This document shows, piece after piece, positions 1,000-21,497 of a stretch of 64,000 nucleotides of DNA. The notes under the pieces are model-generated. The model saw only the letters and a program-made list of their open reading frames with translations, was not told where the DNA came from and did no database searches. The stretch is from Candidatus Bathyarchaeia archaeon. Its GTDB lineage: Archaea; Thermoproteota; Bathyarchaeia; Bathyarchaeales; Bathycorpusculaceae. The translations under genes were made by a program, and so were the position numbers. The stretch is taken from assembly GCA_049516875.1 (NCBI GenBank), contig JBEKSS010000005.1, forward strand, positions 32,001 to 96,000, read 5' to 3'. Numbering within the stretch: position 1 is the stretch's first letter; each line of letters starts with the position of its first letter.

Positions 1000-1479
1000 A
1001 TGAGTCAACAACCTCAGCAGAGCTTGGACAGAACCATTGTACTGGGCCAAGTGGAAGAGCTCAGAAAAACGGTTGAAGATGTTAGAGCGGCCTTAGATGA
1101 GTTGAAGCAAAGAATCATCAAGTTAGAAGCTGACGCAGGCGTGACGGAAACAGGCCTCAGCGCGGTTGCCAGCGCATTAGAGCTTCGCGGGATCCTCAAG
1201 AATGGTGAACCTGTTCAGGAAAAAGAGCCCGCAGCAGCCGTGAAAGAGGAAACCTTCGCAATCCTGAAGTGGGAGTCTCAGCAGGGCGCCAAGATAGGGT
1301 CCTATGATGTTGCCTACGAGGCCAGCAACCTCGAGGACAAGTGGACGTCAGCCTTCAACATTCTGAGGCAAAATAACAGCACGATAAAGGACAGGTATCA
1401 CGGTCAAGGCTACGAATTTTCGTACTGGCTTTATGGCGAGGGCAAAATCTACAAGCAAAGATTGAAGGCGAAAACTTGA
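1000..1479 (+). CDS. Hypothetical protein with N-terminal coiled coil
   Basis: Likely start ATG 1000 (MSQQPQQ...) just after the stop of the previous gene; heptad pattern VEELRKTVEDVRAALDELKQRI. Confidence 0.75.
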   Translation: MSQQPQQSLDRTIVLGQVEELRKTVEDVRAALDELKQRIIKLEADAGVTETGLSAVASALELRGILKNGEPVQEKEPAAAVKEETFAILKWESQQGAKIGSYDVAYEASNLEDKWTSAFNILRQNNSTIKDRYHGQGYEFSYWLYGEGKIYKQRLKAKT

Positions 1480-1784
1480 GAGTACATTGTACGTACGGAT
1501 CTTCGGTTTTCATGGTTCGTATCCCAAAAGAGCAGGAAGACATGATCGTTCTAGTCTGTTTCGGATGTAAGAAGTCCTGGCCTGTGAAGGTTGACTGTTT
1601 GCCGAAACCTGAGTGTCCCAAATGCTCTTCTGTGACGTTCATTGTTCATACTCCACCGAAGAGCACAGCAACCCGCGACAAAATAGTATGGTTAATTTGC
1701 GATGAATGCCGGGCGCTTCAAAACATCAAGTTTGGCGAACTTACGGAAGTTGACTCTGGCGGCGTTTTGAAGAGGAAGGTGTAA
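1476..1784 (+). CDS. Zinc-ribbon protein
   Basis: Three CxxC pairs (CFGC, CPKC, CDEC); TTGA start/stop overlap. Confidence 0.7.
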   Translation: MRVHCTYGSSVFMVRIPKEQEDMIVLVCFGCKKSWPVKVDCLPKPECPKCSSVTFIVHTPPKSTATRDKIVWLICDECRALQNIKFGELTEVDSGGVLKRKV

Positions 1785-1786
1785 CA

Positions 1787-3718
1787 TTGCCAGGCGTCAA
1801 ACTTGATGATGATTTTTACATCGAGAAAACAGCAGAGGGTTATGTTCTTCTTGATCCCGGCGGCAAGGCTGTCCTGGGTCCATTTACGCTGACAGACAAA
1901 TCAATAATGAAAAAGATTGAAGAGCGCACGGGGGCGTCAGAAAAGGCTGTGGAGAGTGCTCTGGCCGAGCTTGCAGTACTATCTGCTGAAGAAACTAAAA
2001 AGACAAAGGCGGACAAGGAGAAGAGAGTCAAGAAAAAACTGAAGGATTCAGGGCTCACGGTTGAGGGTTCCTTTGAAGCAATTTACTCAGACGATAAGCC
2101 CTGTTTTTTGTTGAAGAATGGTGAGAGCTTCAGTATTGTCGAGAGCCTTGACAGTGATGGAGAAAAGGTTTTCCCGAAAGAGGCGAGAAACGTCCCTTAC
2201 GAGCCCTATGGCTATTTTCAAGGTTCTGTTCCAAACAGGGAAGACTTGTTCTGGCGGGTCCGGCAGGAGTTTGACACATGGATAGATGTGGAGCCTATCT
2301 GGAAAGATGTCTTAACCGCGTTAGTAATCTTGACGTACCTTCAGGAGAAACTTCGAACGGTACCATACATTTTCCTCTTTGGCGACAACGAATCGGGCAA
2401 AAGCACGGTCCTGCAGCTGCTAAAGTTTCTGTGTTACAGACCCATGTACGGGGTGACCATTCCAGCCGCGGACCTCTACGGGTACTTGGAAGACAGCGAC
2501 AGCATAGGCTGCATCTTGGAAGACGAAGTTCAGGGTATCAACAAGGACACGGACAAGATCAAGATTTACAAGGCAGGCTACAAGGCGGGAGCTGTCGTGC
2601 CGAGGACCCTTATCACCCAGAACGACCGTATCATAAAGTATTACAAAACTTTCAGTTTCAAAGCATGCGCGAGTGAACAGATACCACAGGTAAAGGGTTT
2701 CGCTGAGAGATTTCTCTTCATTCCTATGGTCGAAGGTTTTCCCCTGAAGGAGTGGGCGGACGCGACAGAAGAGGACTTGCACCGTCTTCACACTCTGCGA
2801 GATATCCTTTTGAAGTGGCGCATGCTCAGCCGAGACTGGGACTTGCCTAGCCTGGAGCTGCAGATGAAGGGGCGGCTTAAGGAACTGTGGAAGCCCATTC
2901 TACAGGTCACGCATGGCCTGCCGGTCTATGAGGACCTCTTCAAGTTTGTGGAGACCCAGAAAAACGAGAGGCTAAGCAACAGGCAGAACACTCTCGAGGG
3001 GCACATCGTCAAGGTCGTCGTCGACCTTCACAACGAGATGAGAGAGGAGAAGTCGAATCTTCCTTTCACGCTAATCTGGGAGGAACTCGTTCACGATCTC
3101 AACGGCAAACTTGACGACCGGAAACCACACGTTATGGACACAAGCGAGTTCTTCGAGGTGACTAAGAACAAGGTTGGTTATCGGCTGCGAGAAGTGCTTA
3201 GTGGCAGAACAACAGTGATAAAAGACAGAGATAGCGATGGAAAGCGTGTTTCTGTTAAAGCATATGTTTTCGACTCTGAGAAGTTGAGGCGTGTAGCCAA
3301 AAAGTATGGTTATGAAGTGTCTACTAAGTTACCGAGTCTACTAAGTTCCGAGAGTGCGCTCACGCCTGAAAGTATGGATAAAACCACTCTTAACAATGTT
3401 GAAAAAGAGCCTTGTACACCTCAGGAACTCGGTAGACTTAGTAACTCAGTAGACAGCCAAAAAGAGCCCTCTGGACTAGCTGTAGAAGACTCTTCTATAT
3501 CGAAAAATCCATTAAAAGAAAGTGTCGTAGACGAAAGGCTGTCAAACTCGGTAACAACCGAGCATACTCCTGGCGAAGAGGAAAGGGTTTGCGGTAAGTG
3601 CGCATCATGGCATAAACCAGGCTGTTCCTATCCAGAAGGCGAGCCTTCTTGTGTCACTCCATTGAACCGGTATGCCGCTGATTGTAAGGACTTCATTGCC
3701 GAGGAGGCCAAGGCATGA
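1787..3718 (+). CDS. P-loop ATPase, putative replicative helicase/Rep, with C-terminal Zn finger
   Basis: Walker A GDNESGKST, Walker B CILEDE, Arg-finger-like AERF, C-terminal CGKC..H..GC...C...C; position typical of an MGE replication gene. Confidence 0.75.
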   Translation: MPGVKLDDDFYIEKTAEGYVLLDPGGKAVLGPFTLTDKSIMKKIEERTGASEKAVESALAELAVLSAEETKKTKADKEKRVKKKLKDSGLTVEGSFEAIYSDDKPCFLLKNGESFSIVESLDSDGEKVFPKEARNVPYEPYGYFQGSVPNREDLFWRVRQEFDTWIDVEPIWKDVLTALVILTYLQEKLRTVPYIFLFGDNESGKSTVLQLLKFLCYRPMYGVTIPAADLYGYLEDSDSIGCILEDEVQGINKDTDKIKIYKAGYKAGAVVPRTLITQNDRIIKYYKTFSFKACASEQIPQVKGFAERFLFIPMVEGFPLKEWADATEEDLHRLHTLRDILLKWRMLSRDWDLPSLELQMKGRLKELWKPILQVTHGLPVYEDLFKFVETQKNERLSNRQNTLEGHIVKVVVDLHNEMREEKSNLPFTLIWEELVHDLNGKLDDRKPHVMDTSEFFEVTKNKVGYRLREVLSGRTTVIKDRDSDGKRVSVKAYVFDSEKLRRVAKKYGYEVSTKLPSLLSSESALTPESMDKTTLNNVEKEPCTPQELGRLSNSVDSQKEPSGLAVEDSSISKNPLKESVVDERLSNSVTTEHTPGEEERVCGKCASWHKPGCSYPEGEPSCVTPLNRYAADCKDFIAEEAKA

Positions 3719-8862: not shown

Positions 8863-9282
8863 CTACAACTCTACGCCTTCAAACGCGACGCCTGCCCACC
8901 GTGCGCTGCCAAGTTGCAACAGCCTTAGTTGGAATGTGCCTGGTCCCAGCGAGTGTACGGGCTCATCCACTTTTCCGCTGCGGTTTTCAACTCCTCTTCC
9001 CTGCAGATAGCCAATATCAACCGTTCCGTTGATTTGCCCCGGCGCGAGCGTTCCAGTCTTGGTTAGAGCCCACCAGAGCTCAGCTGAACCCGCTTGAATG
9101 CTCAGGTACGTCATTTGAAAAACACTGCCTGGAGCCACCCTGTGGCTTCCAGCCGTGACCGTGACGCCGGTTCCCCTTACACGGGAGGCCCTCATGAGCG
9201 TCAGAGTCGGAACTATCTGGTCTATGAACTGTCTCTTACGCGGGTCGAGTATCTCATGCCTTTCTACCCTAATTTCAGGCAT
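8863..9282 (-). CDS. Beta-rich putative jelly-roll-like virion protein
   Basis: Alternating beta-strand pattern, Gly-rich turns, C-terminal strand VAFEGVEL; likely start ATG 9282. Confidence 0.5.
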   Translation of the reverse strand: MPEIRVERHEILDPRKRQFIDQIVPTLTLMRASRVRGTGVTVTAGSHRVAPGSVFQMTYLSIQAGSAELWWALTKTGTLAPGQINGTVDIGYLQGRGVENRSGKVDEPVHSLGPGTFQLRLLQLGSARWAGVAFEGVEL

Positions 9283-9358
9283 TCGTTCACTTTCCATTAA
9301 TAACTTCATCTTGAAATGCTTTTAAGCGTTTGAAGGCGATTCTTATTATGGTGAGCAC

Positions 9359-9766
9359 TTGAGTCTTGTAACTATGGCCGTCGACGGGTTTGTGCGACGC
9401 TGGCCGATTATCGGGCAGCCGCTGTTCTTTCCGTCGAGGAGCACGAGGAGTCCGGCTCCACATCAACGCTTTCCGAAGCCTGCGCCTATTCCAACGTATG
9501 AACGTCGGTTGTGGGGCGCTGACAACTTCGACCGCTTCGAGAACCAGCGATTTGAGCGAGGCCCAAGTCGACTGACCGGCCCAAAGCCCGGGGTCAAGAC
9601 TTATGGTGGATTCGGTGTCGTGAACCCCGTGTACGTCGAGCCGGAAACCCGCGTGAAAACTTTCAACGCGCCCGCATCATACGGGAACATTCTGCCACGG
9701 GCTCCTGTGAAGAGCTATGAACAGGGGTTTGGGCAGGCCGCTAGGACGCCCATCAAGACCTATTAG
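9359..9766 (+). CDS. Pro/Arg-rich hypothetical protein
   Basis: 135-aa ORF with repeated VKTY/VKTF/VKSY/IKTY motifs. Confidence 0.65.
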   Translation: MSLVTMAVDGFVRRWPIIGQPLFFPSRSTRSPAPHQRFPKPAPIPTYERRLWGADNFDRFENQRFERGPSRLTGPKPGVKTYGGFGVVNPVYVEPETRVKTFNAPASYGNILPRAPVKSYEQGFGQAARTPIKTY

Positions 9767-9868
9767 GGTTGAGAATGAGTCTGTAAATAACAATATTTTT
9801 TGTTTTCAAAAAAAATTTTAACTAGAACAATCATAGTTATTTTGTGCGGTTTTGTTAATCTGAATTAA

Positions 9869-9890
9869 CCGAAACGTTTTTAAATTTGTT
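9869..9890 (+). promoter_or_regulatory. BRE-TATA promoter driving the array
   Basis: CCGAAACG-TTTTTAAAT after an AT-rich tract; a near copy CTGAAACG-TTTAAATA lies at ~12378-12393. Confidence 0.6.
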
Positions 9891-9899
9891 GCGTTCAAC

Positions 9900-10410
9900 A
9901 TGTTTTAGTACGTTGTGCTTAAAGCAACAACGTACAGCAACATCATAAGCAACTAATCAACCGACACGTAAAATCTACGGCTGTTCTATGGCTGTTCACA
10001 ATACCTAAGACGGATTAAGCCTTTGATCTTGAAACGCTTCTGTTGGGTGGAACAGAAACACAAATACCGCCACGATTAGAGGCTTGAAAGGTCTTTAAGA
10101 CGTGTGACGAAACACACACACGGATTTAGTACGGCTGTTCTGGAATATCTCGATTTTACTGAAGTTTACCATGTTGGGAAATTAGGCTTATGCCATCGCA
10201 GAAGGTTAAGGTGTTCTGTGGATGGGCGGAATAAGTTAAAACCGTTGAAACCTATTGTTTTAGGCTGTTCCACGTCACAAGACGTAAAACGTGACGCAAA
10301 CAAAGAATTAGGCTGAAAAACACCTTAAAAGATTAGACCTTTATTATCCTTATCCTAGAGGTAATAAAGACAATTCAGACAGACGCTTCTCTAAACCGTT
10401 GCCCACAACA
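9900..10410 (+). ncRNA. Putative long structured leader/ncRNA
   Basis: At least 6 hairpins, a 10-bp loop pseudoknot (10206-10215 with 10319-10328), 4x GGCTGTTC, and no credible ORF. Confidence 0.55.
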
Positions 10411-10426
10411 AACACAGGTGTTTTCT

Positions 10427-10738
10427 ATGCTGAATGTCGGAAAATGTCGAAGTTGCGGTTTCGTAGTTCACCATCTATCTACTCCAGACTTCAAGGCTCT
10501 TATGAACGGACACCTCAGCAGATCTCATCCCAGCGAAGCCTTTGATTTTCCCCTGCACGTCACTATGACAGACTTCAAGGCTCTTTTTATCATCGTAAGA
10601 GTCACGAAGGAAGAGGAGATAGAGGGCACACTACGAGTTCTGCAAAACCGTGGTTATTGGGTGGCAATTCGTAACCATCCACAACTACAAAACATCCTTG
10701 TTTCTGGCTTGGGCATCGGGGAGTTAAAGCCTTTCTGA
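10427..10738 (+). CDS. C2H2-type Zn-finger protein (array gene 1)
   Basis: AGGTG SD; CRSC...HLSRSH; internal 17-bp direct repeat at 10485/10569 (DFKAL x2). Confidence 0.75.
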   Translation: MLNVGKCRSCGFVVHHLSTPDFKALMNGHLSRSHPSEAFDFPLHVTMTDFKALFIIVRVTKEEEIEGTLRVLQNRGYWVAIRNHPQLQNILVSGLGIGELKPF

Positions 10739-10790
10739 AATCCTCTACGGCAAAATAGCCTGCAGACTAGTTTCCTCACTTAAAGGGAGA

Positions 10791-11273
10791 ATGAATGTTT
10801 TGCCAAGAAGAAATGCTCAAACAGCCGAAACCCAAGTCGTGACTGAACCTTCTAGACTAGATTTGCTTGAGGCTTTCGCAGAGTTGGTGGCTGAGAGATG
10901 GGGCTATTTTATGGGCAGACGCCTCACTCAACAAGAGATGACTGAGAAGTGCAAGAACGAAATCAAAGCTGCCAGAGAGAAATCCAAGGCTCTCAACGGG
11001 AGCATAGAGAAACTCATCAAGGGCGAGGATCCAGAAGTCCGAGCCATGATTGAGACTCAGCGTGCCGACCTGAAGAACGCCAAAGAAATCGCGGGCGAAG
11101 CTAGAAAGCCGTTCCAACAAAAGATTGCCCCTCTAGCTCAAGCTCAGAAATACTGTGACAACGTGGCCATTCCCGACTCTTTGAAAGAGTTGGGGCACCC
11201 TGTCACGCCACGGTTCAGCCTCAGCGAGTGGGTGGGCAAGGCTGTCGAGCAGAACAAGAGAAAGAAGAAGTAA
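10791..11273 (+). CDS. Coiled-coil protein with C-terminal PRFSLSEW motif and basic tail
   Basis: 160-aa helical ORF followed by an oligo-T junction. Confidence 0.8.
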   Translation: MNVLPRRNAQTAETQVVTEPSRLDLLEAFAELVAERWGYFMGRRLTQQEMTEKCKNEIKAAREKSKALNGSIEKLIKGEDPEVRAMIETQRADLKNAKEIAGEARKPFQQKIAPLAQAQKYCDNVAIPDSLKELGHPVTPRFSLSEWVGKAVEQNKRKKK

Positions 11274-11319
11274 GTCAGCTTCTTCCACATCAACCTCAAC
11301 CCCCTTTTTTTCCTGCTAA

Positions 11320-11845
11320 AACTGTTCGGCTCGTCCGACAGTGGCATGGAAAGGCAGTCTTGCGAGAGCTAGACGCACGAGAGGACAGAATAAAGGCTTG
11401 AGAAGACAAAGATAGAAGCGTTTGTGCGTTAAACCTCAAAGGACTGTGGAGAAGGAAGACCGCTGGCTGTAAGGGAACAGCCGAAACCCCAATGAAGTCT
11501 TTTTCACAGCTAACCGCTCAGGACCTCTTCGTCCATTATCCAGAAGGTTTAATGGACATGGAGAGGGCACTCTCCGAGCCGATCGGCGGTGTAAGCTGAA
11601 GGAGAGTTGGTAGCTCGTATAACACAAAGAAGAAGCCCCATTACTTCTAAGCCTGATCCATGTGGGAGACACCCCCAATCATACTACCCACGTGCTACTC
11701 ACATTGAACAAGCTACCTTCGGGTACGCATGTTTCAAGTCGAGTTGGGCGGAAGCGAGCAGCGTAGAAGGGCGACTTTCTACGCGAGGAAATGGAAGGCG
11801 CAGCAATGCGCTGGGCGAGGCAGCACAGACGCTTACCAACGCTGG
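11320..11845 (+). ncRNA. Putative large structured ncRNA (~520 nt)
   Basis: Continuous nested stems, GCGA and GCAA GNRA loops, a C(UUCG)G loop, and G-U pairs consistent with plus-strand RNA. Confidence 0.65.
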
Positions 11846-11857
11846 GGTGTTAGTGTC

Positions 11858-12082
11858 ATGAGCATTTTCTGCGAGAATGAAGGAAAGTTGGTCACTATCG
11901 TTATCCCAAACAGAATAGCCATCGGCAGCCAAGTGAAAGTCATCAAGTGCCACAAGAAACTGCGCGATCGTGATTGTAGGGGCTGCCTTGCCAAGCATGC
12001 GTGTGCTGTATTCTTAGACGAGCCGAGGTTTTCACTCAAAACTTTCTGTGGAGGTCGAAGACGTCGAAAACGGAAACCATAG
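11858..12082 (+). CDS. Small Cys-rich protein with PRFSLKTF motif and Arg tail
   Basis: GGGGTG SD at 11844-11849, then ATG 11858 (MSIFCENEGK...). Confidence 0.7.
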   Translation: MSIFCENEGKLVTIVIPNRIAIGSQVKVIKCHKKLRDRDCRGCLAKHACAVFLDEPRFSLKTFCGGRRRRKRKP

Positions 12083-12113
12083 TCCTCTTCCTTTTTCTGT
12101 TCGGGGTGCATGT

Positions 12114-12374
12114 ATGGCCAGAGTTTTGCCAGCAAATGCTATAGAGGTGTCACACAACAAGGAAGCATTCTGCTTAATCTTCAGGTTCCAAGCTGCTGAC
12201 GCACATCAAGAAGCCGTCTACATCTCCATATCGCCTGCAGGAGCAAAAACCACGTCTGCCCTAATCGGCAGGGAAATCCAAGAGTACGAAAGAGAAACAG
12301 GTCTGACAGTAGCACCTTGGGAAATGCCTCAGAGCACACTGACCCAGATGAGTAAAAACCACCTCTCAAGCTGA
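12114..12374 (+). CDS. DUF3467-like protein
   Basis: ANAIEVSHNKEAFCLIF...ISISPAGAKT...LI..EIQEYE..G pattern; start follows a junction repeat. Confidence 0.65.
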   Translation: MARVLPANAIEVSHNKEAFCLIFRFQAADAHQEAVYISISPAGAKTTSALIGREIQEYERETGLTVAPWEMPQSTLTQMSKNHLSS

Positions 12375-12436
12375 TCGCTGAAACGTTTAAATACCTTCTT
12401 CCTTTTTTTGTACGAGGTACGAAGTGGGGTGGAACG

Positions 12437-12643
12437 ATGCCCAAAAAGAAAAGCAAGAGTAAAGAAACCGCACGGCTCAACCTGTACCTCGACCCGGACC
12501 TGGCGAAAAAGCTGAACGACTACTGCCTCGCATACATGGAAAAACACAAGAAAATAATTGAGTCCATAAGACAGATGGTTGGCAGGATGGCGCTGGCAGA
12601 ATGGCTTCAAAACCACGGCGACGACTTCACCGTCGAGCTCTAG
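12437..12643 (+). CDS. Ribbon-helix-helix-like DNA-binding protein
   Basis: RLNLYLDPDLAKKLNDYC beta-alpha-alpha pattern; has its own BRE-TATA upstream. Confidence 0.7.
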   Translation: MPKKKSKSKETARLNLYLDPDLAKKLNDYCLAYMEKHKKIIESIRQMVGRMALAEWLQNHGDDFTVEL

Positions 12644-12674
12644 CCTCCACTTTTTTCTCTTCGGGGTGATTCAA

Positions 12675-12806
12675 ATGGTAAGAAAAGATCCGGAGCATTG
12701 TAGCCACATACGGATAAACAGGGTCCTTGACACCTGGCTCTGCAACGAGTGCGGAGCTGAATTTGTTCCGAAGAATCCTAAGCACACGACAAAGTGGCAA
12801 AATTAA
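12675..12806 (+). CDS. Small Zn-ribbon protein (43 aa)
   Basis: HCSH...WLCNECGAEF; bounded by two junction repeats. Confidence 0.7.
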   Translation: MVRKDPEHCSHIRINRVLDTWLCNECGAEFVPKNPKHTTKWQN

Positions 12807-12824
12807 CCCCCTTTTTCTGCGGTG

Positions 12825-12955
12825 CAAACACCTACTTCATCGACAGTCGAAAGGCTGCAACAGGCGGCGTGGCTCTAATCTCGCTGCGACAAGGGCACTT
12901 TTTGCGCGGAAAAGGTAGGGGGTTCTGTGCAGAAAACCCTAGTCGTGACCATTGG
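12825..12955 (+). ncRNA. Putative small structured RNA (multi-way junction)
   Basis: CCTAC/GTAGG encloses three hairpins, including CAGTC-GAAA-GGCTG. Confidence 0.5.
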
Positions 12956-12969
12956 GGTGTGTATGAGCA

Positions 12970-13635
12970 ATGAGCAAGATACCGTTGCTTCTGCAGCGCA
13001 TTCAAAGATTTGAGGAGAGTCCCAGGGCTCCGCCGAAGACAAGCAAGAAACTGCTAGCCCTTCTCAATCGATTGAACACTCGCGAGTGGCTGCCCATCGT
13101 TGAAGGACAGCTGATGGAAGCCATTGTTCACTTGAAATGTGAAGTGAAGTTCATTGAACACCTGCCCCGCTGCCGGTTCTGTCAGCTGGAGCTCCAGCTA
13201 GATGTCGAGCGTTACAACGGAGTCCATTCAACCTGGTATCTCAGCCTGGAAAACAGTGAATATCTCGAAGAGGAATACCCTGACTGTCCCAAAGAGGAAG
13301 ATTACACGATAGATGATTATTGGAGTCAAGTGGAACGTTACAGGCAGACCGGCACAACAGAATCGAAAGACGTCAACACCCTGAAATTCATCTTGGACAG
13401 GGCAAAATGGGCTTACCAGATAGCTGGAAAACAGATAAAACTGGCCCGGCAGCTGCTCAGACTCGTTCGAAACTGGAACTTCAGCGAGAAGACCGAGGTA
13501 GAATTCAACAGGCTCTTCGAAGAACTTGAAATGTACGAGATAGCTAATCCTTCCCTTTTTTCTGCCTTGGGGTGTAAACACGAGCGACAAACTTCAGAAA
13601 CTGATACACACCATCAACACAAAACGGTATGCTAG
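12970..13635 (+). CDS. Hypothetical helical protein with CxxC; C-terminus reads through a junction repeat
   Basis: CRFC; the junction copy at 13553-13574 lies inside the ORF, so the native stop was probably near 13547. Confidence 0.7.
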   Translation: MSKIPLLLQRIQRFEESPRAPPKTSKKLLALLNRLNTREWLPIVEGQLMEAIVHLKCEVKFIEHLPRCRFCQLELQLDVERYNGVHSTWYLSLENSEYLEEEYPDCPKEEDYTIDDYWSQVERYRQTGTTESKDVNTLKFILDRAKWAYQIAGKQIKLARQLLRLVRNWNFSEKTEVEFNRLFEELEMYEIANPSLFSALGCKHERQTSETDTHHQHKTVC

Positions 13636-14566
13636 AGGAAACCCGAAGGATATACTATATCGGATTCTCGATGAAATCGACATGAGAGCCCACTTCGGTT
13701 ATAGAAGAAGCTGGGAGATACTCGTCGAACTGTTGGCCTATCACCTTGGCTTGCTGTCAAACCCCTGGCTCTACTCGAAACCAGCGATGGACTTACGGTA
13801 CGTTGAAGAGAAGACGAATCCGATGATAAGGCTCGGATTCCGCAGAAACCAGGGTCTGTGGGCTCCTAGAATGAGACTGCAGTGGAGACATCCAGCCTCC
13901 CAGCTTTCACGAGAAGCGAGAGAGGTTCTAGCCCGCGTTGAAGAGACGGACCTTCTGGAACAGTACGTCGTGGCAGCCAGGGCTAAGCCGTGGGACCATG
14001 TAGGCGACATATTCGTTGAACAGGAACTGGCAGGACGGAAGAACGCTCTTGGACAGAACCTGACACCCAAGCAGATCGTTGACTTCATGTTGAAAATGAC
14101 CCTGGATTTTGATAAGCCCACAAAGGAGCCAAGAACGTTGCTTGAACCATGTGTCGGAACAGGGCGATTTCTGATAGAAGCAAGTCTGATGAACCCTGAA
14201 AAACCTCTAATCCTATTCGGAATCGAGATAGACATCACACTGTACCGGGCATGCCTAGTCAACATGGCTCTCTTCAGCAGCAACCATCCCTACAGCATCA
14301 TCCGGGCTGACACGTTGATGCTTGATCTCGAGGCTTCAATGCCTGGCAGCCCGGTCTGGAACCAGGGTAACAGGTGGGATCCAGCGGACATGTCACCATA
14401 CTACATCAAGATACCTCTACCATTCAAGTTCTCCCTAGCGGAAATGGCAAAGGTTATGAAAGAGCAGTCAACCGACGTGCAGCAGCCCACCATCGTAATA
14501 CCGACGCCGCCGATGGCGTTCTCACTTGCAACACTGGCCAGAGCGAAGAAGAAACAACAGACATAA
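13580..14566 (+). CDS. N-6 DNA methylase (HsdM-like) SAM-binding protein lacking the NPPY motif
   Basis: GQNLTPKQIVDFM, LLEPCVGTGRFL, LFGIEID, IIRADTL. The frame is open back to ACG 13580, 5 nt after GGGGTG (track start 13682). Confidence 0.8.
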   Translation, partial: TSDKLQKLIHTINTKRYARGNPKDILYRILDEIDMRAHFGYRRSWEILVELLAYHLGLLSNPWLYSKPAMDLRYVEEKTNPMIRLGFRRNQGLWAPRMRLQWRHPASQLSREAREVLARVEETDLLEQYVVAARAKPWDHVGDIFVEQELAGRKNALGQNLTPKQIVDFMLKMTLDFDKPTKEPRTLLEPCVGTGRFLIEASLMNPEKPLILFGIEIDITLYRACLVNMALFSSNHPYSIIRADTLMLDLEASMPGSPVWNQGNRWDPADMSPYYIKIPLPFKFSLAEMAKVMKEQSTDVQQPTIVIPTPPMAFSLATLARAKKKQQT

Positions 14567-14598
14567 TCCCTCTTTTTTTTCTGTCCGGGGTGCAAAAG

Positions 14599-14997
14599 TT
14601 GAATCCTTTGGAATTGTATCAGCTTAGGCGTTACTGCCGCAAATACGGATTGGATTTTCAGGAGGTCGACAGCACGTTAACATACGCAGAATGCAAAAAG
14701 CATCTTAAGTCCCTGGTGCACATGCTCTTCCAATCACTGGACACGTTTGAACTGGCTCGCATGGCATCGCTGCAGGTAGAGTACATAGAAAACCACGCTC
14801 TCACCTACTATGCATCATGTCGGGTGGGTGGAGAGACAAAATCGGAAGAAGTCGGGGATCCCGACACGAGTCCACAGCGGTTTTCGCTGAAGACCATGAC
14901 AAGTGTTGGATTCTCTCTTTCATCATACGCAAAGCGACAGCCTGCATTTCCGGACCCTAGCATGAACAAGACAAGGCAAACTCAACGAAAAACCTAG
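14599..14997 (+). CDS. Hypothetical protein with two FSL motifs
   Basis: TTG start 6 nt after the junction GGGGTG; ends ...PQRFSLKTMTSVGFSLSSYAKRQ... Confidence 0.75.
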   Translation: MNPLELYQLRRYCRKYGLDFQEVDSTLTYAECKKHLKSLVHMLFQSLDTFELARMASLQVEYIENHALTYYASCRVGGETKSEEVGDPDTSPQRFSLKTMTSVGFSLSSYAKRQPAFPDPSMNKTRQTQRKT

Positions 14998-15094
14998 GCT
15001 AAACCGCCCAGAAATAGTCTTCTTCCTCATACTATATTACAGAAATCTCAAACATTCGGTGAGAGCCCTCTTTTTTTCTCCCCGGGGTGCAAGA

Positions 15095-15364
15095 GTGAGA
15101 CTCCGACGAAGCGACGTGCAAATCGTGAGAGCGATTCTCGAGGCAGCCAAGAAACTGGTGCGGGAGCCCTACTCGCTGAGCGAGCTGGCCGCAGCGGCAA
15201 GCGTGACGAGGAAAACCGCGAGAAGATGGCTCAGCCTGCTCAGGACAGTGGCGGAACTGTTGGTTCTGCCCCTGGAAACCAGGGTTGCTTATTTTGAGGG
15301 TCCAGGAAGAGGCAGAAAGCGAAGACGGAAAAGACTGACCACCGTTTCTCTCGCGCTCAGGTAG
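15095..15364 (+). CDS. Winged-HTH DNA-binding protein with basic tail
   Basis: YSLSELAAAASVTRKTARRWLSLL; GTG start after a junction repeat. Confidence 0.75.
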   Translation: MRLRRSDVQIVRAILEAAKKLVREPYSLSELAAAASVTRKTARRWLSLLRTVAELLVLPLETRVAYFEGPGRGRKRRRKRLTTVSLALR

Positions 15365-15497
15365 GCTGCCATCCCCTTTTTTTCTATGTTCAACTGGGTT
15401 CACTTGGGGTCCAAGGTTTTTGTATTTTCTCCGCACGCTCGTTACGGTTGCCCTATGGGGTGAAAAAACCCTTAAACCTTAAAGGAGAAAGAGAAAA

Positions 15498-16046
15498 ATG
15501 AAAAGACTCAGTAGGCTTAGTACACGCGGCAAAACTCTGATCGTCATCTTGTGCGCTGCTACGCTGGTTGGGGTTGCCGTCGCTATCCCCATCCTCGAGC
15601 GAGTGCTAACAGTGACAGTTCAAACCGGGCCCAGGCTCTTCGAAATCTGGAACGCGGACAGGACAGCGCAGATAACGAGTGTGGATATTGGCGGAATCTT
15701 CCCGGACCAGGTCAACGCCGTAAACTTGACCACGATCTACTTGCACAACACCGACACTTCGGGACAGCGCGACCTGAACATCACGGTGCATCCGTCGGCA
15801 ACGTTCGACTCGACCATCTTCAACCTGCTCGTAAACGGCACAAACCTGGCGGATGGCGTCACAAGAGTGCTTTGGAACAACGGGCCGGGCACATGGGTCC
15901 TGGCCTGGGGCCACGACCAGACGTATCCGATAGAGTGGGTCAAGGTGGAAATCTACCTGTGGCTCAAGCCCGAAGCAAGCCCGCCAGCCGGCGCCTACGA
16001 CTTTCAGCTGCTCTGGGACGCGCCGCTAGGCTCTTGGGGACCGTAG
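15498..16046 (+). CDS. Secreted/membrane-anchored beta-rich protein
   Basis: Basic N-terminus plus hydrophobic helix LIVILCAATLVGVAVA; several N-x-S/T sequons; GGAG SD and TATA-like CTTAAA upstream. Confidence 0.75.
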   Translation: MKRLSRLSTRGKTLIVILCAATLVGVAVAIPILERVLTVTVQTGPRLFEIWNADRTAQITSVDIGGIFPDQVNAVNLTTIYLHNTDTSGQRDLNITVHPSATFDSTIFNLLVNGTNLADGVTRVLWNNGPGTWVLAWGHDQTYPIEWVKVEIYLWLKPEASPPAGAYDFQLLWDAPLGSWGP

Positions 16047-16096
16047 TGAACGCTAAAGCGAACACTTCATAACCCTCTTTTTTCTGTTCGGGGTGA

Positions 16097-16396
16097 ATGA
16101 AAGCGTCTGAATCTCTTAAAACAAAAGTCAAATCCTACAACCCGTACACGAGAGCACGGAACAATCAACAGATTTACAAGACGTGTCCAGACTGTGGAAG
16201 AGAGCTTATGATGTATCGTGAATCGGGACATCAGCACTGGAGACCTACCGGCAGAGCATGTCCAGAACTTGTTGAATGGAACTATGTTGTGTACATACGA
16301 TGTGGAATCTGCGGTGGATTAGTTAAAACACGGTTGAAACCTATGTCGAAGTCTATGCCAAAGGACCTAGCGCGGCAATGGAAATTAATACCCTGA
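16097..16396 (+). CDS. Zn-ribbon protein
   Basis: CPDCG...CGICG; between junction repeats. Confidence 0.7.
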   Translation: MKASESLKTKVKSYNPYTRARNNQQIYKTCPDCGRELMMYRESGHQHWRPTGRACPELVEWNYVVYIRCGICGGLVKTRLKPMSKSMPKDLARQWKLIP

Positions 16397-16435
16397 GTCT
16401 CCACTCCTCCCTTTTTCTGTTCTGGGGTGATTGAA

Positions 16436-16582
16436 TTGAGTTATTTGCGAAGAATCTTAGGAGTAGTCCTGAATGGCGCCGCGGAAGTCAGTCAGATCGC
16501 CAGCGACGCCGCCAAGGAAACAGCAGAAGTAGTCAAGGACGTCGCCAAGACCGTTACCGAGAAGAAACCAGCAACGGCATGA
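16436..16582 (+). CDS. Small amphipathic helical protein (48 aa, not in the ORF track)
   Basis: TTG 6 nt after GGGGTG; MSYLRRILGVVLNGAAEVSQIASDAAKETAEVVKDVAKTVTEKKPATA. Confidence 0.65.
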   Translation: MSYLRRILGVVLNGAAEVSQIASDAAKETAEVVKDVAKTVTEKKPATA

Positions 16583-16673
16583 AGCCTTTATTTACGAGGG
16601 GCTTCTGCCTCTTTTTTTTCTGTTCGGGGTGAAGGCCCGTTTAAGGTTGGAATGAAGGGCAAGCAGTGGTTAT

Positions 16674-17012
16674 CTAGGGAAGGAACGCTAACTTTTCCCA
16701 AGACCAAGTCGGATTTTTGAAGCCGCGCTTAACGTATGATTCAATTATTTCATCATCAGACATTTTCAAGATGGTATCTGCTGCCTCTAGCGTTTTTTTC
16801 GCGTACTCAAAGACAGGGTCAACGCCCGAAAACGCATAGCGTTTGTCGAGTTCGGCCTTAGTTATAAGGGTGCGGCGAGGCATATGTTTGCTTCGTTGAT
16901 GCCTCAAGATTTTGGCTATTTCTTCTTTGGATTTTGACCTCTTCATTTTCTCTATTGCGTTCAATCTCTTCATTTTTTCTTCATTCTCGCTGTTACGGTA
17001 CATTTTTTTCAT
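16674..17012 (-). CDS. Basic hypothetical protein
   Basis: Lys-rich ORF; GGAG SD before MMKK; TTTAAA upstream. Confidence 0.6.
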   Translation of the reverse strand: MKKMYRNSENEEKMKRLNAIEKMKRSKSKEEIAKILRHQRSKHMPRRTLITKAELDKRYAFSGVDPVFEYAKKTLEAADTILKMSDDEIIESYVKRGFKNPTWSWEKLAFLP

Positions 17013-17167
17013 CATCTCCTTTTCACATTCCAAAAACCTCGGATATTTAAATGTAGAGCAGCCACGGCCTGCCGTGGATCCTGTTTCAGCGAGGGACGCT
17101 GCCAGCTGTTGGCTAGAGCCTGGCTGCCTGCTGCAGCAACATTCCTCATAATCAAGTTATTAACAAA

Positions 17168-17398
17168 GATAGAGAGCGTAAGGCGGGTCAGTTCCTCGCA
17201 GACATGAAAGAACAGGACCAACTCAGCAAGGGCGGTGGAGACCAAAAATCAAAGTTACACGATGTTACTTTGAAAACTATAGGGATTGAAAAGATTGAGT
17301 CTCAGCGGTGGCAGCGCATCGCTGGAATACCTGAGGAACGATTCGAAGAATACCTGCTGAATGCTAAAAAGAGTCAACGGCTAGAAGTACGGGGTTGA
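17168..17398 (+). pseudogene. Fragment of a phage-type protein (domain often N-terminal to phage DNA methylases)
   Basis: DRERKAGQFLADM...TLKTIGIEKIESQRWQRIAGIPEERFEEYL, truncated at both ends. Confidence 0.5.
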
Positions 17399-17427
17399 AC
17401 ATTTAGAGGTCGCAAATCCGTGCATTA

Positions 17428-18375
17428 TTACGCTCCTAGCAAGAGGAACGCTATATAAAGAACAAGGCATATAGCGGAGAATAGAACGTACCACTGATTT
17501 CTCTTCCACCATCTTGAGATTTCTGCATTATGTGCGTCGATCCAAGGTGAAAGTCTTTTGAACAGTCCGTACATGGAGCCGATAGTGAAAAGAACGGAAA
17601 GCAGCTGTGAAAGCCAAAGCCAGTTGGCTGCAGAGTTGACCGCTGGCGCCGTCTCCGGAGTGACGTTGAAAAACGCAGTCGTGTAGGTGATGGCGTTTTG
17701 AGACGACAGTGTACCGCCCGTGGAGGTTTGATACGTTTCATCAAGGAGAAAAACCCAGAGTTCCCATTGCCCGATCTGACTGGGATCCGTGGCTGTCTGC
17801 TTCTCAAGCCACACCTCGCTGTTTCCCTCATGGTTGCTGGCGTTCCAGTAGTCTCCTTGTCCGCTTATCATTGTCTGCCGCGAAATTTCAAGGTAGCTTC
17901 CATAAGTCCCCAGTTGCAGATAAGTGCCTTGAGCATTAAGTGGCCATGGCGATAGCTTGTAGCCCTGTGCGACATAGACGTCTTGTGGAAACACGGACGC
18001 AACAGCCCCTGTGGTGTTCACAAGGAAGGCGTAGAAGTATGGCTTGCTGAGCGGGGTTCCGGTGTTGTTGATTTCCACGTGAATCTTGACTGTCCCTCCT
18101 ATTGGGACGTCCGTGTTTTCGAATGAAATGTAGATTCTGGCCGAGTAGCCCGACACGCCCGACGACGCTGCAACGTCGCCTTGCAAAACACTACTCGTAA
18201 GGTAAGGGTATTGAGTCGGCACGAACTGTAGCTCTAATTTTCCAGGCTCAAAACGTGAAGCAGCCCAGGACGCAATGCCAGGGGAAAATAGAACGAGGAT
18301 AATTATCAAAACGATGATTCCGGACACCACGTTTCCAAGAGTCCATCTCGATTTCTTTTTCGATTCCTCAGCCAT
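17428..18375 (-). CDS. Membrane protein with extracellular beta domain
   Basis: N-terminal TM, Ig-like middle, two C-terminal TMs; start MAEESKKK. Confidence 0.75.
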   Translation of the reverse strand: MAEESKKKSRWTLGNVVSGIIVLIIILVLFSPGIASWAASRFEPGKLELQFVPTQYPYLTSSVLQGDVAASSGVSGYSARIYISFENTDVPIGGTVKIHVEINNTGTPLSKPYFYAFLVNTTGAVASVFPQDVYVAQGYKLSPWPLNAQGTYLQLGTYGSYLEISRQTMISGQGDYWNASNHEGNSEVWLEKQTATDPSQIGQWELWVFLLDETYQTSTGGTLSSQNAITYTTAFFNVTPETAPAVNSAANWLWLSQLLSVLFTIGSMYGLFKRLSPWIDAHNAEISRWWKRNQWYVLFSAICLVLYIAFLLLGA

Positions 18376-19229
18376 TTTTCTGCCTTCGACCATTGGTCGA
18401 CTGCCTATTAGTTGAATCGGCTGATATCGTTTGCGGTAGCTCCGCACTCAAAACTAATCCTTTAGCGGGCTCAGCACTCAAGTCATGCAACCATGAATCT
18501 TAAATAAATCGTTAGCTTTCTTATGAACCTGAAATATGGATTCAGAATTCAGGTGCGATGTACCCACGTGGTCGACTTGAACCACAAACACGCGACCGTG
18601 CATGATGGCGAACCTTTTTATTTGCGGTCTTGTTATTTGAACTTTGCCGGATGATGAAAAGGCATTAAATTGACATCAGGATGAAATCTCAGAGTTACTC
18701 GGACGGCACTTGACGAGCAACTTGAATATCGTGCTGATTTCTCTAAGTGTCCTCCAGCGTGCTTGTAGAAACCATGATGCTACATGCAAAACTGCCATGA
18801 TACACGCTCGAAAAACGATTTCCGCCAACCAAGGGATCACGTACTATGTCTTTCCAGAAGAATGATGGGTACCTTCACCTATTCATACCGAAGCAAGTAT
18901 AGTGGTTCGCTTGCCCCTCTTTTTCCTTCTTCTCTGGAAACGCTGGAGGAGTCGGTTCTTCTAGGTTCTAACGTGGCACTTTTTTTCTTTTCGTTCACCG
19001 AGTTCTTTTTTTGAATATTCAATTTTCACACTCGTTCCTATGTTATCTTGACGTTACAAGTAGTTGATTTTGCAGTGACTACCAATATCTAGTTTCAGAA
19101 GCCAAAATCTGTATCATGAAAATTAACCCTGAATCAATAGACACTGTTCAGACAATATGCCGATTCACGACTTTCGCAGCTTGAGAGAAATGAAGTGAAC
19201 CTTCAAAATCATAGTCTGACGTTGACGGA

Positions 19230-20009
19230 TCAAGGCCTTATCGCTTTGCGAGCGAAGGTGATGTAGCCAGTGTGTCCAGTCATCAATGTGTGGGGCCGTG
19301 TTTTTCCCCTTTCAACTTGCATCCCGCGCATCAGGCACTCGATTGTCTCGATGCTCACGAAACCATTTTCTTTCAAGGCTTCAACTGTCTTCACAACCTG
19401 ATCTATTGTCGGACTAAAGGAAACTAGTGTTCCGCATGGCTTTAAAGCGGTGAACGCGTGCGGGACAACCATCCAAGGGATTGCCAAATCAAGTATTACT
19501 GAATCAACCTCCTCCTCGTCTATTCCGGTTGTAACGTCCTTGTTCTTCAATTCGACGTAGTCAATTATGCCAGCGCGTCTCAGATTCTTCTCAGCCGTTT
19601 TTTGAAATTCTTCTCTGATTTCGTAGCTGTAGACTCTGCCGTTAGGCTGGACGTAATGGGCTAACGCCGTGGTCAGAGCGCCTGTTCCAGTGCCAGACTC
19701 AACGACGCAGCTTCCTGGCCCTATTCCGCTGAACATTACAATGAGTGCTATGTCCTTCGGATAGGTTATCTGCGTTTGTCGGACAGATTTCATGATGTAA
19801 TCATGGAGCAACGGTTTCAGCGCTGTGAATTCGAAACCCAGACTGCTTTGAACCGTGGAACCGTATTCTTTTCCGACTAGGTCGTCGAATTTTATGAAGC
19901 CCTTGTGGGTATGGAAGCTTTTTCCGCTTTCAACTTTGATCAGGTAGGTCTTTCGTGCGCTCAGGCTGAGAAGTATGTGGTCGCCATCGAGTATTTTCTG
20001 TTCTGTCAA
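19230..20009 (-). CDS. trmI: tRNA (adenine-N1)-methyltransferase
   Basis: FHTHKG, QITYPKD, ESGTGTGALT, VILDL, HTGY. Confidence 0.95.
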   Translation of the reverse strand: MTEQKILDGDHILLSLSARKTYLIKVESGKSFHTHKGFIKFDDLVGKEYGSTVQSSLGFEFTALKPLLHDYIMKSVRQTQITYPKDIALIVMFSGIGPGSCVVESGTGTGALTTALAHYVQPNGRVYSYEIREEFQKTAEKNLRRAGIIDYVELKNKDVTTGIDEEEVDSVILDLAIPWMVVPHAFTALKPCGTLVSFSPTIDQVVKTVEALKENGFVSIETIECLMRGMQVERGKTRPHTLMTGHTGYITFARKAIRP

Positions 20010-20018
20010 CTGTTTTCA

Positions 20019-21497
20019 CTATGGTGTGTATTTGAAAGGATGTTTTGATCGGTCCTTGTTTTCCATAAGCTCGTCCATGCCAGGTCTGCCTTCCATGGCC
20101 TTGCGCACGGCGTGACGTACAGCCTTGTAGTTGTTTATGTACACACGTTGTCGGTCAACGGCTGCGGGATGGACGAAAACGTTTGCTATGATTATGAGTT
20201 CTTCAACAGCTTCCTTCGGAATCGTGCCATCTGCGACGCTGTCTATGACAGCTTTGGCCACCGCCGTTTGGGCTGGCCCATAAACCATGCTTGCCTCCCG
20301 CATGCCCCTGATCGTGACTGTTGGAACGATTAGGGTTACCGGCTTGACCGCCAAGTTCGGCTCCAGAATGGCCAGTAACGGCTCATGCCCCGGAGTTGGT
20401 GTTGCCTTGGCCTTTGTGAAGGCTTCCGCCACTGGGCCGTCTTTCGTTCCGATAAGGAGGTCAACGTGAGCCACCTCTGCATCCTGCCCAGCTAGTGCTT
20501 CCCCAACGCGCAGTTTGAAGTTCTTGACTGTTTCTGGAGTAATGTCCACGGTCACGAAACGCTCTTCCAGAGGTTTCTCAGTTAGCTCAAAGCTTATTGG
20601 TTTTGGTTGTACTTTCCCTATTTTTTCCAGGTCGAGCCTCAGTTCCTCTTTTGACTCGTAGGTTAATTCTCCACCGACGCTTAATGGTTTCCTCACTGGG
20701 CCGACCTTGATTTTCATCATCTTCAGCGCCTCTTTTGTGCCTACGGCGCCGCTTCCCGCTATTATTCTAGCTATTTTCTGGACTTTGTATTGAAGTTCGC
20801 GGGCCTGTTGCAGCTCACCCTTCTTCACATGGTTATAGATTTGAATCCAAATGTCGGGTATGACGTTGGCACTAGCAAGGATTGCCCCTGAGCATCCGGC
20901 TGAGAGTCCTGCCACGACAACCTCGTCGTGCCCGCAAAGAACGTTTATCTTGTCCCTGACTTTTTCCAGAACGGCCAAGATGAAGCTTAGCTGTCCGCTG
21001 CTGTCCTTCAATGCGACGATGTTTGGGATTTGCGCTAGATCTTCCACCATCTGCCAGGGAAGAGGCAAGCCTGTGCACTGCGGAATGTTGTAGAGAATTA
21101 TGGGCAGGTCGACTTCATTCGCAATCGTGTAGTAGTGCTCGTATATTCCCCGATCTGCTGGTTTTAGGTAGAACGGTGTGACGATGAGGGCAGCGGTGGC
21201 GCCAACGTCCTTTGCGTACTTCGTCATTTCCACCGCTTGGTCTGTGCCGCTTGCTCCTGTCCCAGCAATCACTGGAACCCGGCCGTTCACTTCGTCAACC
21301 ACGATCTTGATTACGCCCTTTTTCTCCTCGTTCGTGAGGTTTACAAACTCGCCGGTCGTACCGCACGGGACGACTCCGTGAACGCCCAGTTCGATGCAAT
21401 GGTTAACTAAACTCCGCAGCCTTTCTTCGTCAATTGTTTTCCCGTCGTCGGTAAAGGGCGTCACCAGCGCGGGCATAATGCCTTCCGGCTTGTACAT
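20019..21497 (-). CDS. DapA/NAL-family aldolase fused to formaldehyde-activating enzyme (Fae)
   Basis: GTTGE, YNIP, LKDSS; C-terminal VGEAL...VAHVDLLIG...GPAQ...HPF Fae domain. Confidence 0.9.
   Translation of the reverse strand: MYKPEGIMPALVTPFTDDGKTIDEERLRSLVNHCIELGVHGVVPCGTTGEFVNLTNEEKKGVIKIVVDEVNGRVPVIAGTGASGTDQAVEMTKYAKDVGATAALIVTPFYLKPADRGIYEHYYTIANEVDLPIILYNIPQCTGLPLPWQMVEDLAQIPNIVALKDSSGQLSFILAVLEKVRDKINVLCGHDEVVVAGLSAGCSGAILASANVIPDIWIQIYNHVKKGELQQARELQYKVQKIARIIAGSGAVGTKEALKMMKIKVGPVRKPLSVGGELTYESKEELRLDLEKIGKVQPKPISFELTEKPLEERFVTVDITPETVKNFKLRVGEALAGQDAEVAHVDLLIGTKDGPVAEAFTKAKATPTPGHEPLLAILEPNLAVKPVTLIVPTVTIRGMREASMVYGPAQTAVAKAVIDSVADGTIPKEAVEELIIIANVFVHPAAVDRQRVYINNYKAVRHAVRKAMEGRPGMDELMENKDRSKHPFKYTP

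Follow-up and report, generated by a model that had tools for sequence, protein, structure and literature searches.

The DNA analysed here, a stretch of 64,000 nt from a Candidatus Bathyarchaeia archaeon (the window; contig JBEKSS010000005.1, positions 32,001 to 96,000 of the forward strand), carries part of an integrative element in which small genes stand in a row on one strand, separated by copies of a short composite sequence that we refer to as a joint. Joints consist of a C-rich pyrimidine box, a run of T5–8, a short linker of CT plus pyrimidines and a Shine–Dalgarno (SD) sequence, GGGGTG. We consider it probable that they serve both as expression punctuation and as recombination joints in a one-strand, promoter-poor cassette operon of Bathyarchaeia integrative elements. 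Cassette arrays built on a regulatory repeat are now on record in archaeal integrative elements, where they are widespread and accompanied by an unexplained large RNA. A preliminary description of the sequence had noted the array and interpreted the repeats as plug-and-play expression and recombination joints; the observation is confirmed, and the interpretation is partly supported, the expression half by the spacing of the SD and by TTTTTCT following stop codons, and the recombination half by what comparison between relatives suggests.

The eight copies originally listed are all present where the preliminary description placed them, on the + strand, with T-run-to-GGGGTG spans of 12092-12108, 12651-12668, 13556-13574, 14573-14592, 15071-15089, 16078-16095, 16412-16429 and 16612-16631. 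A strict pattern (T{5,}CT N2-5 GGGGTG), run over both strands of the 2.43-Mb assembly, matches eight times, and all eight matches lie on the + strand of the window between 12092 and 16631, in one 4.5-kb stretch, in keeping with the earlier remark that the motif was not seen in host DNA. A looser pattern (T{4,}N3-9GGGGTG) gives 32 matches genome-wide, eight of them at the array, whereas TTTTTCTNTNCGGGGTG with up to three mismatches is found eight times in the window against 2.55 ± 1.55 times in dinucleotide shuffles, none of 100 of which reaches eight. From the end of GGGGTG to the start of the next long open reading frame (ORF), the distances for joints 1 to 7 are 5, 6, 5 (to an ACG), 6, 5, 1 and 6 nt; the claim that copies end 5-6 nt before the next start consequently holds for six of the eight, and fails for joint 6 (1 nt) and for joint 8, which has no start and, as had been noted, no ORF behind it. 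Split copies also exist (11299-11320, 12397-12431, 12808-12959 and 15373-15411), although the first of these, which does bear a T-run after gene b, is the start of a structured RNA of ~500 nt that had been overlooked.

The composite is not an ordinary terminator plus SD of this genome: a T-run, SD and start follow within 60 nt behind only 7 of 2482 long host ORFs, which makes it a feature of the element rather than of the host. Nor is the array of the CRISPR kind, as joint-to-joint spacing ranges from 37 to 2009 nt (median 377), the spacers are ORFs and the repeat varies in length. The description of the motif as non-palindromic also stands, the RNA folds of the eight joints being no more stable than those of shuffles (z from -0.91 to +1.37, with 39-190 of 200 shuffles folding at least as well). 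A hairpin, or a fold sequestering the SD, was considered and rejected: the C-box pairs with the GGGG in five of the eight minimum-energy folds, but with energies no better than in shuffles. Outside the window, the only other close joint-like pair in the genome is at C4:51122-51193 (- strand), where two sequences of T5, linker and GGGGTG stand 53 nt apart; gene b, which is single-copy in the genome, is not nearby.

Relatives were sought among 332 genomes of the family, with G000 denoting the one that carries the window array. The exact-type pattern is present in four of these; a reversed control gave three single matches, so that singles are at chance level. With a relaxed pattern, the background was 0-4 matches per strand, similar to the control, and strand-biased clusters were counted as arrays: the matches on the + and - strands were 8/1 in G000, 0/14 in G002, 9/1 in G163, 7/2 in G244, 0/6 in G235 and 5/0 in G150. 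The resulting arrays comprise 14 copies in G002, 11 in G163, seven in G235, six in G244 and five in G150, each confined to a single stretch of 3-7 kb; G313 and G246 were rejected, their matches being scattered. An exact 17-mer searched across ~185,000 species was found at 104 loci, only two of which (the records behind G002 and G134) hold arrays, the remainder being chance singles, mostly bacterial.

Gene b, which lies upstream of the array, proved a productive marker. It occurs in six of the 332 family genomes, and its relatives, which carry Bathyarchaeia names, form 459 protein clusters at E≤1e-5; an alignment of gene b (A2) retrieved 126 metagenome relatives, from which 80 loci were kept, including the window's own sequence (L175). 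The methylase of the array, used as a lone query against the genome contigs, gave no match. Homologues of gene a lie directly upstream of b in G002, G163, G235 and G248 and in 48 of 79 metagenome loci. The AlphaFold model of protein b (predicted local distance difference test score 84) is an all-helical hairpin, for which no PDB match was found at E≤0.001 (best E-value 0.15); names attached to its relatives ('regulator of sigma D', 'FliH', 'seryl-tRNA synthetase') were set aside as apparent coiled-coil artefacts. One metagenome contig of 2.23 Mb bears three separate modules of b plus array (L223, L227 and L232), so a single genome can hold several such elements.

In the 80 loci, 540 joints lie on the + strand downstream of b (349 kb searched), against two upstream (372 kb) and 17 on the - strand (721 kb). 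The first is 650-1500 nt after b, and up to 22 occur within the 10 kb fetched. The composite of U-tract and SD between small genes is common to all eight joints of the window and to the 516 unique joints of the metagenomes. In the latter, C makes up 54-93% at positions -5 to -1 of the box, with purines at or below ~10%; the T-run is 5-7 long in 461 and at least 5 in 485; and the linker, which is 85% pyrimidine, starts with CT in 380 and is absent in 93, its length and sequence varying. The spacer from SD to start is A-rich, with a peak at 5 nt. Of the 446 cassettes whose ORF is complete, 313 have their stop codon 0-25 nt ahead of the next T-run and 37 have one that overlaps the T-run, while in 96 the distance is greater.

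The SD of the joint fits its host. Upstream of host starts, GGAG, GAGG, AGGT and GGTG step toward the start codon, with GGTG peaking at -11 in 62 of 2253 first starts; the host SD is of the GGAGGTG type, of which GGGGTG is a one-wobble variant at normal spacing. Such a strong SD, 4-7 nt before the start, would render each small gene translatable alone, even with TTG, ACG or ATA as the start codon. In 452 metagenome cassettes whose ORF reaches 50 amino acids or more, the codon at SD spacing is ATG in 185, TTG in 148 and GTG in 34. The other 85 have none of these, and the codon standing in frame 4-8 nt behind the SD is ACG in 22 of them and ATA in 19. In G000, G002 and G150, the methylase ORF begins with an ACG that is 5-6 nt from the SD; in G000 and G002 no canonical in-frame start lies upstream of it, and the stretch of 34 residues preceding the first ATG can be aligned with orthologues whose start codon is TTG. 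Near-cognate starts behind a joint SD (ACG, ATA and, once, ATC) were seen at window position 13580, in G002, G150 and G134, and in metagenome cassettes.

At the other end of the joint, TTTTTCT fits the TTTTTYT signal at which SSV1 transcripts end (PMC9608457). In Methanococcus, termination efficacy grows with the number of U4 tracts, one being of intermediate and two of high efficacy (PMC8716108). The single U-tract of the joint would most likely act as a partial terminator or 3'-end signal, with transcripts either ending or reading through at each joint, and the cassettes would depend on read-through from upstream. The same tract could instead be seen as the T-rich box of a promoter, ~22-25 nt before the start, each joint giving rise to a short-leader transcript; the centre of the T-run is ~21-24 nt from the start codon, which is near the archaeal TATA-to-start distance given in PMC9608457. 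This we regard as highly improbable. Host promoters, as seen in 26 tRNA upstream regions, combine a purine-rich CGAAA with a (T/C)TTAAAT box, whereas the joint is a pyrimidine tract without A. Neither a transcription factor B recognition element (BRE) and TATA box like the host CGAAA + TTAAAT, nor an A-rich box, was found in the joints of the window or in the metagenome profile, and without host-type promoter elements the joints are not promoters. Moreover, an invariant SD placed 4-7 nt ahead of the start codon is meaningful only within a transcript.

The module and its array comprise the following features, in window coordinates.

10418..10738, + strand: gene a, 106 amino acids, a CxxC protein and first conserved gene of the module; no Pfam family
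10791..11273, + strand: gene b, 160 amino acids, helical hairpin protein and module marker (homologues, AlphaFold model)
11295..11830, + strand: candidate structured non-coding RNA, with a 5' domain at ~11299-11400 and a core at ~11412-11830 (conservation, covariation)
11842..11849, + strand: SD GGGGTG of the first cassette, without a T-run, 8 nt before the ATG at 11858
11858..12082, + strand: cassette gene c, 74 amino acids; homologue in G002, 64% identical
12086..12108, + strand: joint 1 (C-box, T5, CTGTTC, GGGGTG)
12114..12374, + strand: cassette gene, 86 amino acids, family 4 of the metagenome set
12397..12431, + strand: degenerate joint (T7, 16-nt insert, GGGGTG), 5 nt before the ATG at 12437
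12437..12643, + strand: cassette gene d, 68 amino acids; at the array end in G002, G163, G244 and G235
12645..12668, + strand: joint 2
12675..12806, + strand: cassette gene, 43 amino acids, zinc-ribbon-like
12808..12959, + strand: split joint, with C-box, T5 and CTG at 12808, ~135 nt between, and the SD GGGGTG at 12954
12970..13635, + strand: cassette gene e, 221 amino acids; 75% identical to its G002 and 57% to its G163 counterpart (there after the methylase)
13550..13574, + strand: joint 3
13580..14566, + strand: cassette gene f, N6 DNA methyltransferase (PF02384 at 7.7e-10); apparent ACG start 5 nt after the SD
14567..14592, + strand: joint 4
14599..14997, + strand: cassette gene g, 132 amino acids, TTG start
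15065..15089, + strand: joint 5
15095..15364, + strand: cassette gene, 89 amino acids, GTG start; weak winged-helix matches
15373..15411, + strand: degenerate joint (T7, CT ... GGGGTC), with no gene at SD spacing behind it
15498..16046, + strand: gene, 182 amino acids, N-terminal membrane helix; own AGGAG-type SD, not joint-led
16072..16095, + strand: joint 6
16097..16396, + strand: cassette gene, 99 amino acids, ATG only 1 nt after the SD
16406..16429, + strand: joint 7
16436..16582, + strand: cassette gene, 48 amino acids, TTG start
16606..16631, + strand: joint 8, terminal, no gene behind
18512..18527, no strand assigned: right boundary of the element, marked by an imperfect 16-bp direct repeat, TTAgCTtTCTTATGAA

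Pfam and PHROG searches with the cassette proteins recognised only the methylase, an ATP-dependent DNA ligase and zinc ribbons. The ORF of gene e lacks a stop before joint 3, spans the joint and shares 56 nt with the methylase gene; immediately ahead of the joint there are two stop triplets in other frames, and a frameshift or an assembly error is possible. At 15021-15045, ~45 nt before joint 5, there is a 25-nt word with a TATA-like ACTATATTA, which recurs with up to three changes at three other dispersed sites of the genome (C1:430232, C4:149300 and C7:24696) and in exact copies at several places in genomes of the same genus; it may represent either a promoter of the host type or a small dispersed repeat that lies within the array.

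The content and order of the arrays differ between relatives, as is evident from the five genomes below, in which x and. are cassettes without a family letter, zn is the 43-amino-acid zinc-ribbon gene and TM the 182-amino-acid membrane gene (the loci of G002 and G163 are labelled L025 and L164, respectively).

G000 (window): a b [RNA] c x d zn e f(methylase) g x TM x x
G002: a b [RNA] c. h. i(ligase). j. e k f l m g d
G163: a b [RNA] .. i k h l l j f e m g d
G235: b [RNA] e. i h f m n d
G150: f n l m

Cassettes d, e, k, l and j shift their place between genomes, and l is tandemly duplicated in G163. Cassette n is extra in G150 relative to G002, the homology ending exactly at both flanking joints (distances 0/0). 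Cassette i is the ATP-dependent DNA ligase and f the N6 DNA methylase, whereas most other cassettes have no family. The 540 cassettes of the metagenomes fall into 64 families and 132 singletons, and gene order is likewise not fixed among these loci: of the 148 locus pairs with four or more single-copy families in common, 87 are collinear and 61 show one or more changes of order, and 140 of 1631 family-pair comparisons are discordant. Family 0 has, on its right side, 13 different family neighbours and 11 singleton neighbours. The arrays have a backbone order with many insertions or deletions and some moves. A further family, family 1 (97 amino acids; e.g. L227:12937-13227), matches only the N-terminal part of the adenylation domain of ATP-dependent DNA ligase and precedes other cassettes in many arrays; this may reflect a split ligase gene or a joint-like sequence inside the ligase.

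The ends of homology between arrays were located in 37 loci with arrays of at least three joints, using alignments of at least 88% identity and at least 200 bp. Alignment ends inside the arrays of both partners number 157. In both partners, 98 of these come within 10 nt of a joint; a further 15 are 11-30 nt off, 14 are 31-100 nt off and 30 are farther away. The 62% that are within 10 nt compare with 9.0% of array positions, a seven-fold concentration that supports a role of the joints as putative exchange points. Additionally, single cassettes of ~90% identity are flanked by unrelated neighbours, with each of their two ends 0-6 nt from a joint, and tandem duplicates of cassettes are found in G163 (l) and in L205, L211, L213, L197, L209 and L251 (families 9 9, 3 3, 56 56, 20 20 and 21 21), this being the outcome expected of unequal exchange between neighbouring joints. 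Because the same direct repeat flanks every gene, the joint, ~25-30 nt in length and in direct orientation, would be the site of cassette loss, duplication, insertion and movement, presumably by homology-driven exchange between joints, both within one element and between related ones. It is in this qualified sense, drawn from comparison of sequences, that we infer plug-and-play as a mechanism.

The same observations have to be weighed against a simpler possibility, namely, that joints are expression punctuation and nothing more: their parts would be selected for expression, and ordinary illegitimate or homologous recombination would show at joints as these are the gene boundaries. The intergenic space is almost wholly joint, such that any exchange at a boundary maps there, and the linker varies in length and sequence as if function were selected, rather than a unit copied; the backbone order kept in the 87 collinear pairs is also in its favour. 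We nevertheless consider it distinctly less probable, albeit a possible explanation, as it sits poorly with the highly similar single cassettes between unrelated neighbours that end 0-6 nt from joints, with the tandem duplicates, with the terminal joint of the window, which retains its SD with no gene behind, and with the degree of concentration of the break points.

Several points weigh against the dual role of the joints that we favour. The collinearity of 87 of the 148 locus pairs and the low number of discordant comparisons mean that the backbone order is kept; any mosaic element would be expected to show break points where its genes meet, and the locus pairs are not independent of one another. 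An empty terminal joint, which would argue that joints travel as units, is not general, being present in one of seven arrays with a visible end, and that one is the window's own copy (L175). As a 16S rRNA gene was not found in the assembly, the SD match of GGGGTG depends on the upstream profile of the host and on the archaeal anti-SD sequence. The enrichment of T-runs after host stop codons is only modest (302 of 2482 long ORFs, compared with 7.3% of random 50-nt windows), and U-tract termination in this lineage is assumed by analogy with other archaea. Lastly, 8-22 efficient U5-8 tracts in series would shut down genes far along the row, the methylase and the ligase among them; either the tracts are weak, or they are overridden, or they have another role, for example as an unstructured re-initiation spacer or in the binding of protein or RNA.

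The region between gene b and the array is ORF-poor (11295-11830) and aligns at the same position in G002, G163, G235 and G156. RNAalifold applied to four sequences gave 122 pairs, 42 with compensatory changes. In loci with at least 700 nt after b, a sequence hidden Markov model detects the 5' domain in 70 of 70 and the core in 59 of 70. For covariation, 45 near-full-length core hits were taken (14 partial hits were left out), of which 14 were dropped as at least 92% identical, leaving 31 sequences. Their alifold structure has 106 pairs, 69 of them with changes on both sides; 90.7% of cells are paired, against 74.4% in shuffles and 40-46% with slid partners, and the covariation score is 0.49, against 0.196 in shuffles (0 of 500 as high) and 0.08-0.13 for slid partners, although the structure, being derived from the tested alignment itself, is favoured against the slid controls. 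The covarying helices contain many G-U pairs, which places the RNA on the strand of the array. None of 4227 Rfam covariance models matched window positions 9000-18600 at the gathering score or at E≤1, and two divergent copies of the RNA gave chance-level Rfam matches only (E 0.46 to 4.2). We describe it as a candidate large structured non-coding RNA that is apparently undescribed; a literature search that included the Bathyarchaeia virus paper found no description of the joints or of the RNA, while supplementary files might hold related contigs.

Copies of the RNA lie at L025:1682-2377 (-), L164:14605-15250 (+), L166:18852-19532 (-) and L172:~1200-2050 (+), and some have hairpin insertions behind two conserved C-rich loops. 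These loops, ACCCCAAUG and CCACCCCCAA, have 6-8 nt of complementarity to the joint SD, but their columns are invariant and were not used as evidence; loop 1 pairs locally with GGGG in the loop of a neighbouring hairpin (helix 6, 83.9% paired), and loop 2 faces a conserved GAUUGGCGGGG. Between G002 and G163, which belong to two genera, 421 bp of the core are 96.9% identical, whereas the flanking genes are 55-79% identical. Such identity across genera points to either a recent exchange of this piece or very strong constraint.

One possible function of this leader, and the boldest that the data allow, would be cis-acting control of the array by processive antitermination of the kind known from HK022 put or Bacillus EAR RNA, in which the RNA, perhaps with proteins a and b, overrides U-tracts that are efficient terminators. 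It is consistent with the position of the RNA before the array in nearly all loci, with its strand, with genes a and b preceding it and with the 8-22 serial U5-8 tracts behind it. The RNA itself, however, lies behind a T7 run that follows b, is far larger than put or EAR, and could have an unrelated function (replication, packaging or a ribozyme); moreover, no archaeal precedent is known to us, although no search was directed at one. On balance, we regard this explanation as unlikely. A wider proposal, which we hold to be doubtful, is that gene a, gene b, the ~500-nt RNA and the joint array together make up a new archaeal cassette platform, in which the RNA, as a new large class, would control the whole row, and the strong SD would license the ACG and ATA starts. 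The role of the RNA might then be, for example, to make the polymerase resistant to the 8-22 U-tracts, as a counterpart of put or EAR, or to guide exchange at the joints.

The carrier of the array is an integrative element, ~20.7 kb in length, that bears an integrase and is absent from genomes of the same genus. Host homology stops at C5:29853 and resumes at C5:50512 (window position 18512), and three genomes of the same genus (G288, G290 and G289) have an empty site; in G288 the flanks abut, which gives an insert of ~20.66 kb. The left copy of the direct repeat is at C5:29838-29853, 2.1 kb before the window start, and next to it, at the left end of the insert, is a tyrosine integrase of 421 amino acids (C5:29919-31184; PF00589 at 8.9e-9, phrog_1 at 1.8e-14). 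Other genes of the insert encode a 643-amino-acid P-loop protein (ATPase), a ParB-like nuclease and a 406-amino-acid coiled-coil protein, none of which is common to the related modules. Host genes resume at 19230 with TrmI, followed at 20019-21497 (-) by a fusion of a DapA-like 4-hydroxy-tetrahydrodipicolinate synthase domain (TIGR00674 at 1.3e-73) with a formaldehyde-activating enzyme (Fae) domain (TIGR03126 at 7.6e-63). In the viral contigs of IMG/VR, the exact 17-mer matches 14 contigs, once in each and with no array, and neither the methylase nor the alignment of gene b found a relative there; the element is thus not among the recognised viruses.

The presence of the integrase raises the question of whether joints are integron-like sites, at which the element's tyrosine recombinase captures and excises cassettes. 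The array is a row of promoterless cassettes on one strand, and a tyrosine recombinase is found not only within this element but also 1.4-4.5 kb ahead of b, both in G235 and in nine of the 33 metagenome loci with at least 5 kb of upstream sequence. However, the joints have neither an inverted repeat nor a stable fold, and vary in length and linker; the integrase, which in the window's element is ~13 kb from the array, is accounted for by insertion of the whole element between 16-bp repeats that do not resemble the joint. Recombinase-driven capture at the joints is accordingly very unlikely, and homology-driven exchange remains the route that we prefer.

Bathyarchaeia are among the most abundant uncultured archaea of sediments, and their mobile elements are barely known. 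The present family is widespread, being represented by at least 126 loci in metagenomes, by 459 marker-protein clusters and by up to three copies on one contig, and its accessory genes are arranged as exchangeable cassettes behind one common signal. The combination of b, leader RNA and joints provides a simple sequence handle for finding such elements and their ORFan cargo, which includes a DNA methylase, a DNA ligase and, probably, anti-defence genes. It also offers an archaeal test case for short regulatory repeats that drive modular evolution, and poses two puzzles, namely, how 8-22 serial U-tracts are read through, and what role is played by a large covarying RNA that is absent from Rfam. 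Were the platform proposal to be true, Archaea would gain a functional analogue of both integrons and phage antitermination.

By analogy, we read the joints as an archaeal counterpart of the PeSL (promoter-early stem-loop) cassettes, rather than of integron attC sites. PeSLs are mobile regulatory cassettes of T4-type phages (Arbiol et al. 2010, PMC2839356; Comeau et al. 2014, PMC4122927). They have, as here, a short composite motif of regulatory character that recurs in hyperplastic regions between small genes, most of them ORFans, to which the insertions, deletions and replacements between relatives map (in our case, the G002/G150 difference and the 98 of 157 break points), and in which a terminator function is joined to the expression signal of the next gene. 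PeSLs combine a sigma-70 promoter with a stem-loop terminator in viruses of bacteria, whereas joints, which have neither promoter nor stem-loop, combine a U-tract with an SD in an integrative element of archaea; and PeSL mini-circles were demonstrated by experiment, whereas the joints are known from sequence comparison. Integron arrays share with the joint array a tyrosine recombinase in the neighbourhood, a single strand, promoterless cassettes, a repeated site and variable content, but an attC site is an imperfect inverted repeat and functions as a folded single strand, whereas joints are non-palindromic pyrimidine tracts that carry a ribosome-binding site. Among archaea, viruses of the Sulfolobales have a consensus regulatory sequence before early and anti-defence genes (Bhoobalan-Chitty et al. 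2024, PMC11065993). Many small, unrelated and non-conserved genes of mobile elements are there likewise placed under one highly similar sequence; this, however, is a BRE and TATA promoter yielding one transcript per gene, whereas joints are a U-tract and SD in a polycistronic row. Finally, the archaeal U-tract terminators (SSV1 TTTTTYT; aCPSF1/FttA) resemble the joints, in which TTTTTCT directly follows the stop codon and a single tract would be expected to give partial termination. Those terminators end transcription units, whereas joints fuse the tract to an SD, 8-22 times over, in a co-directional row.

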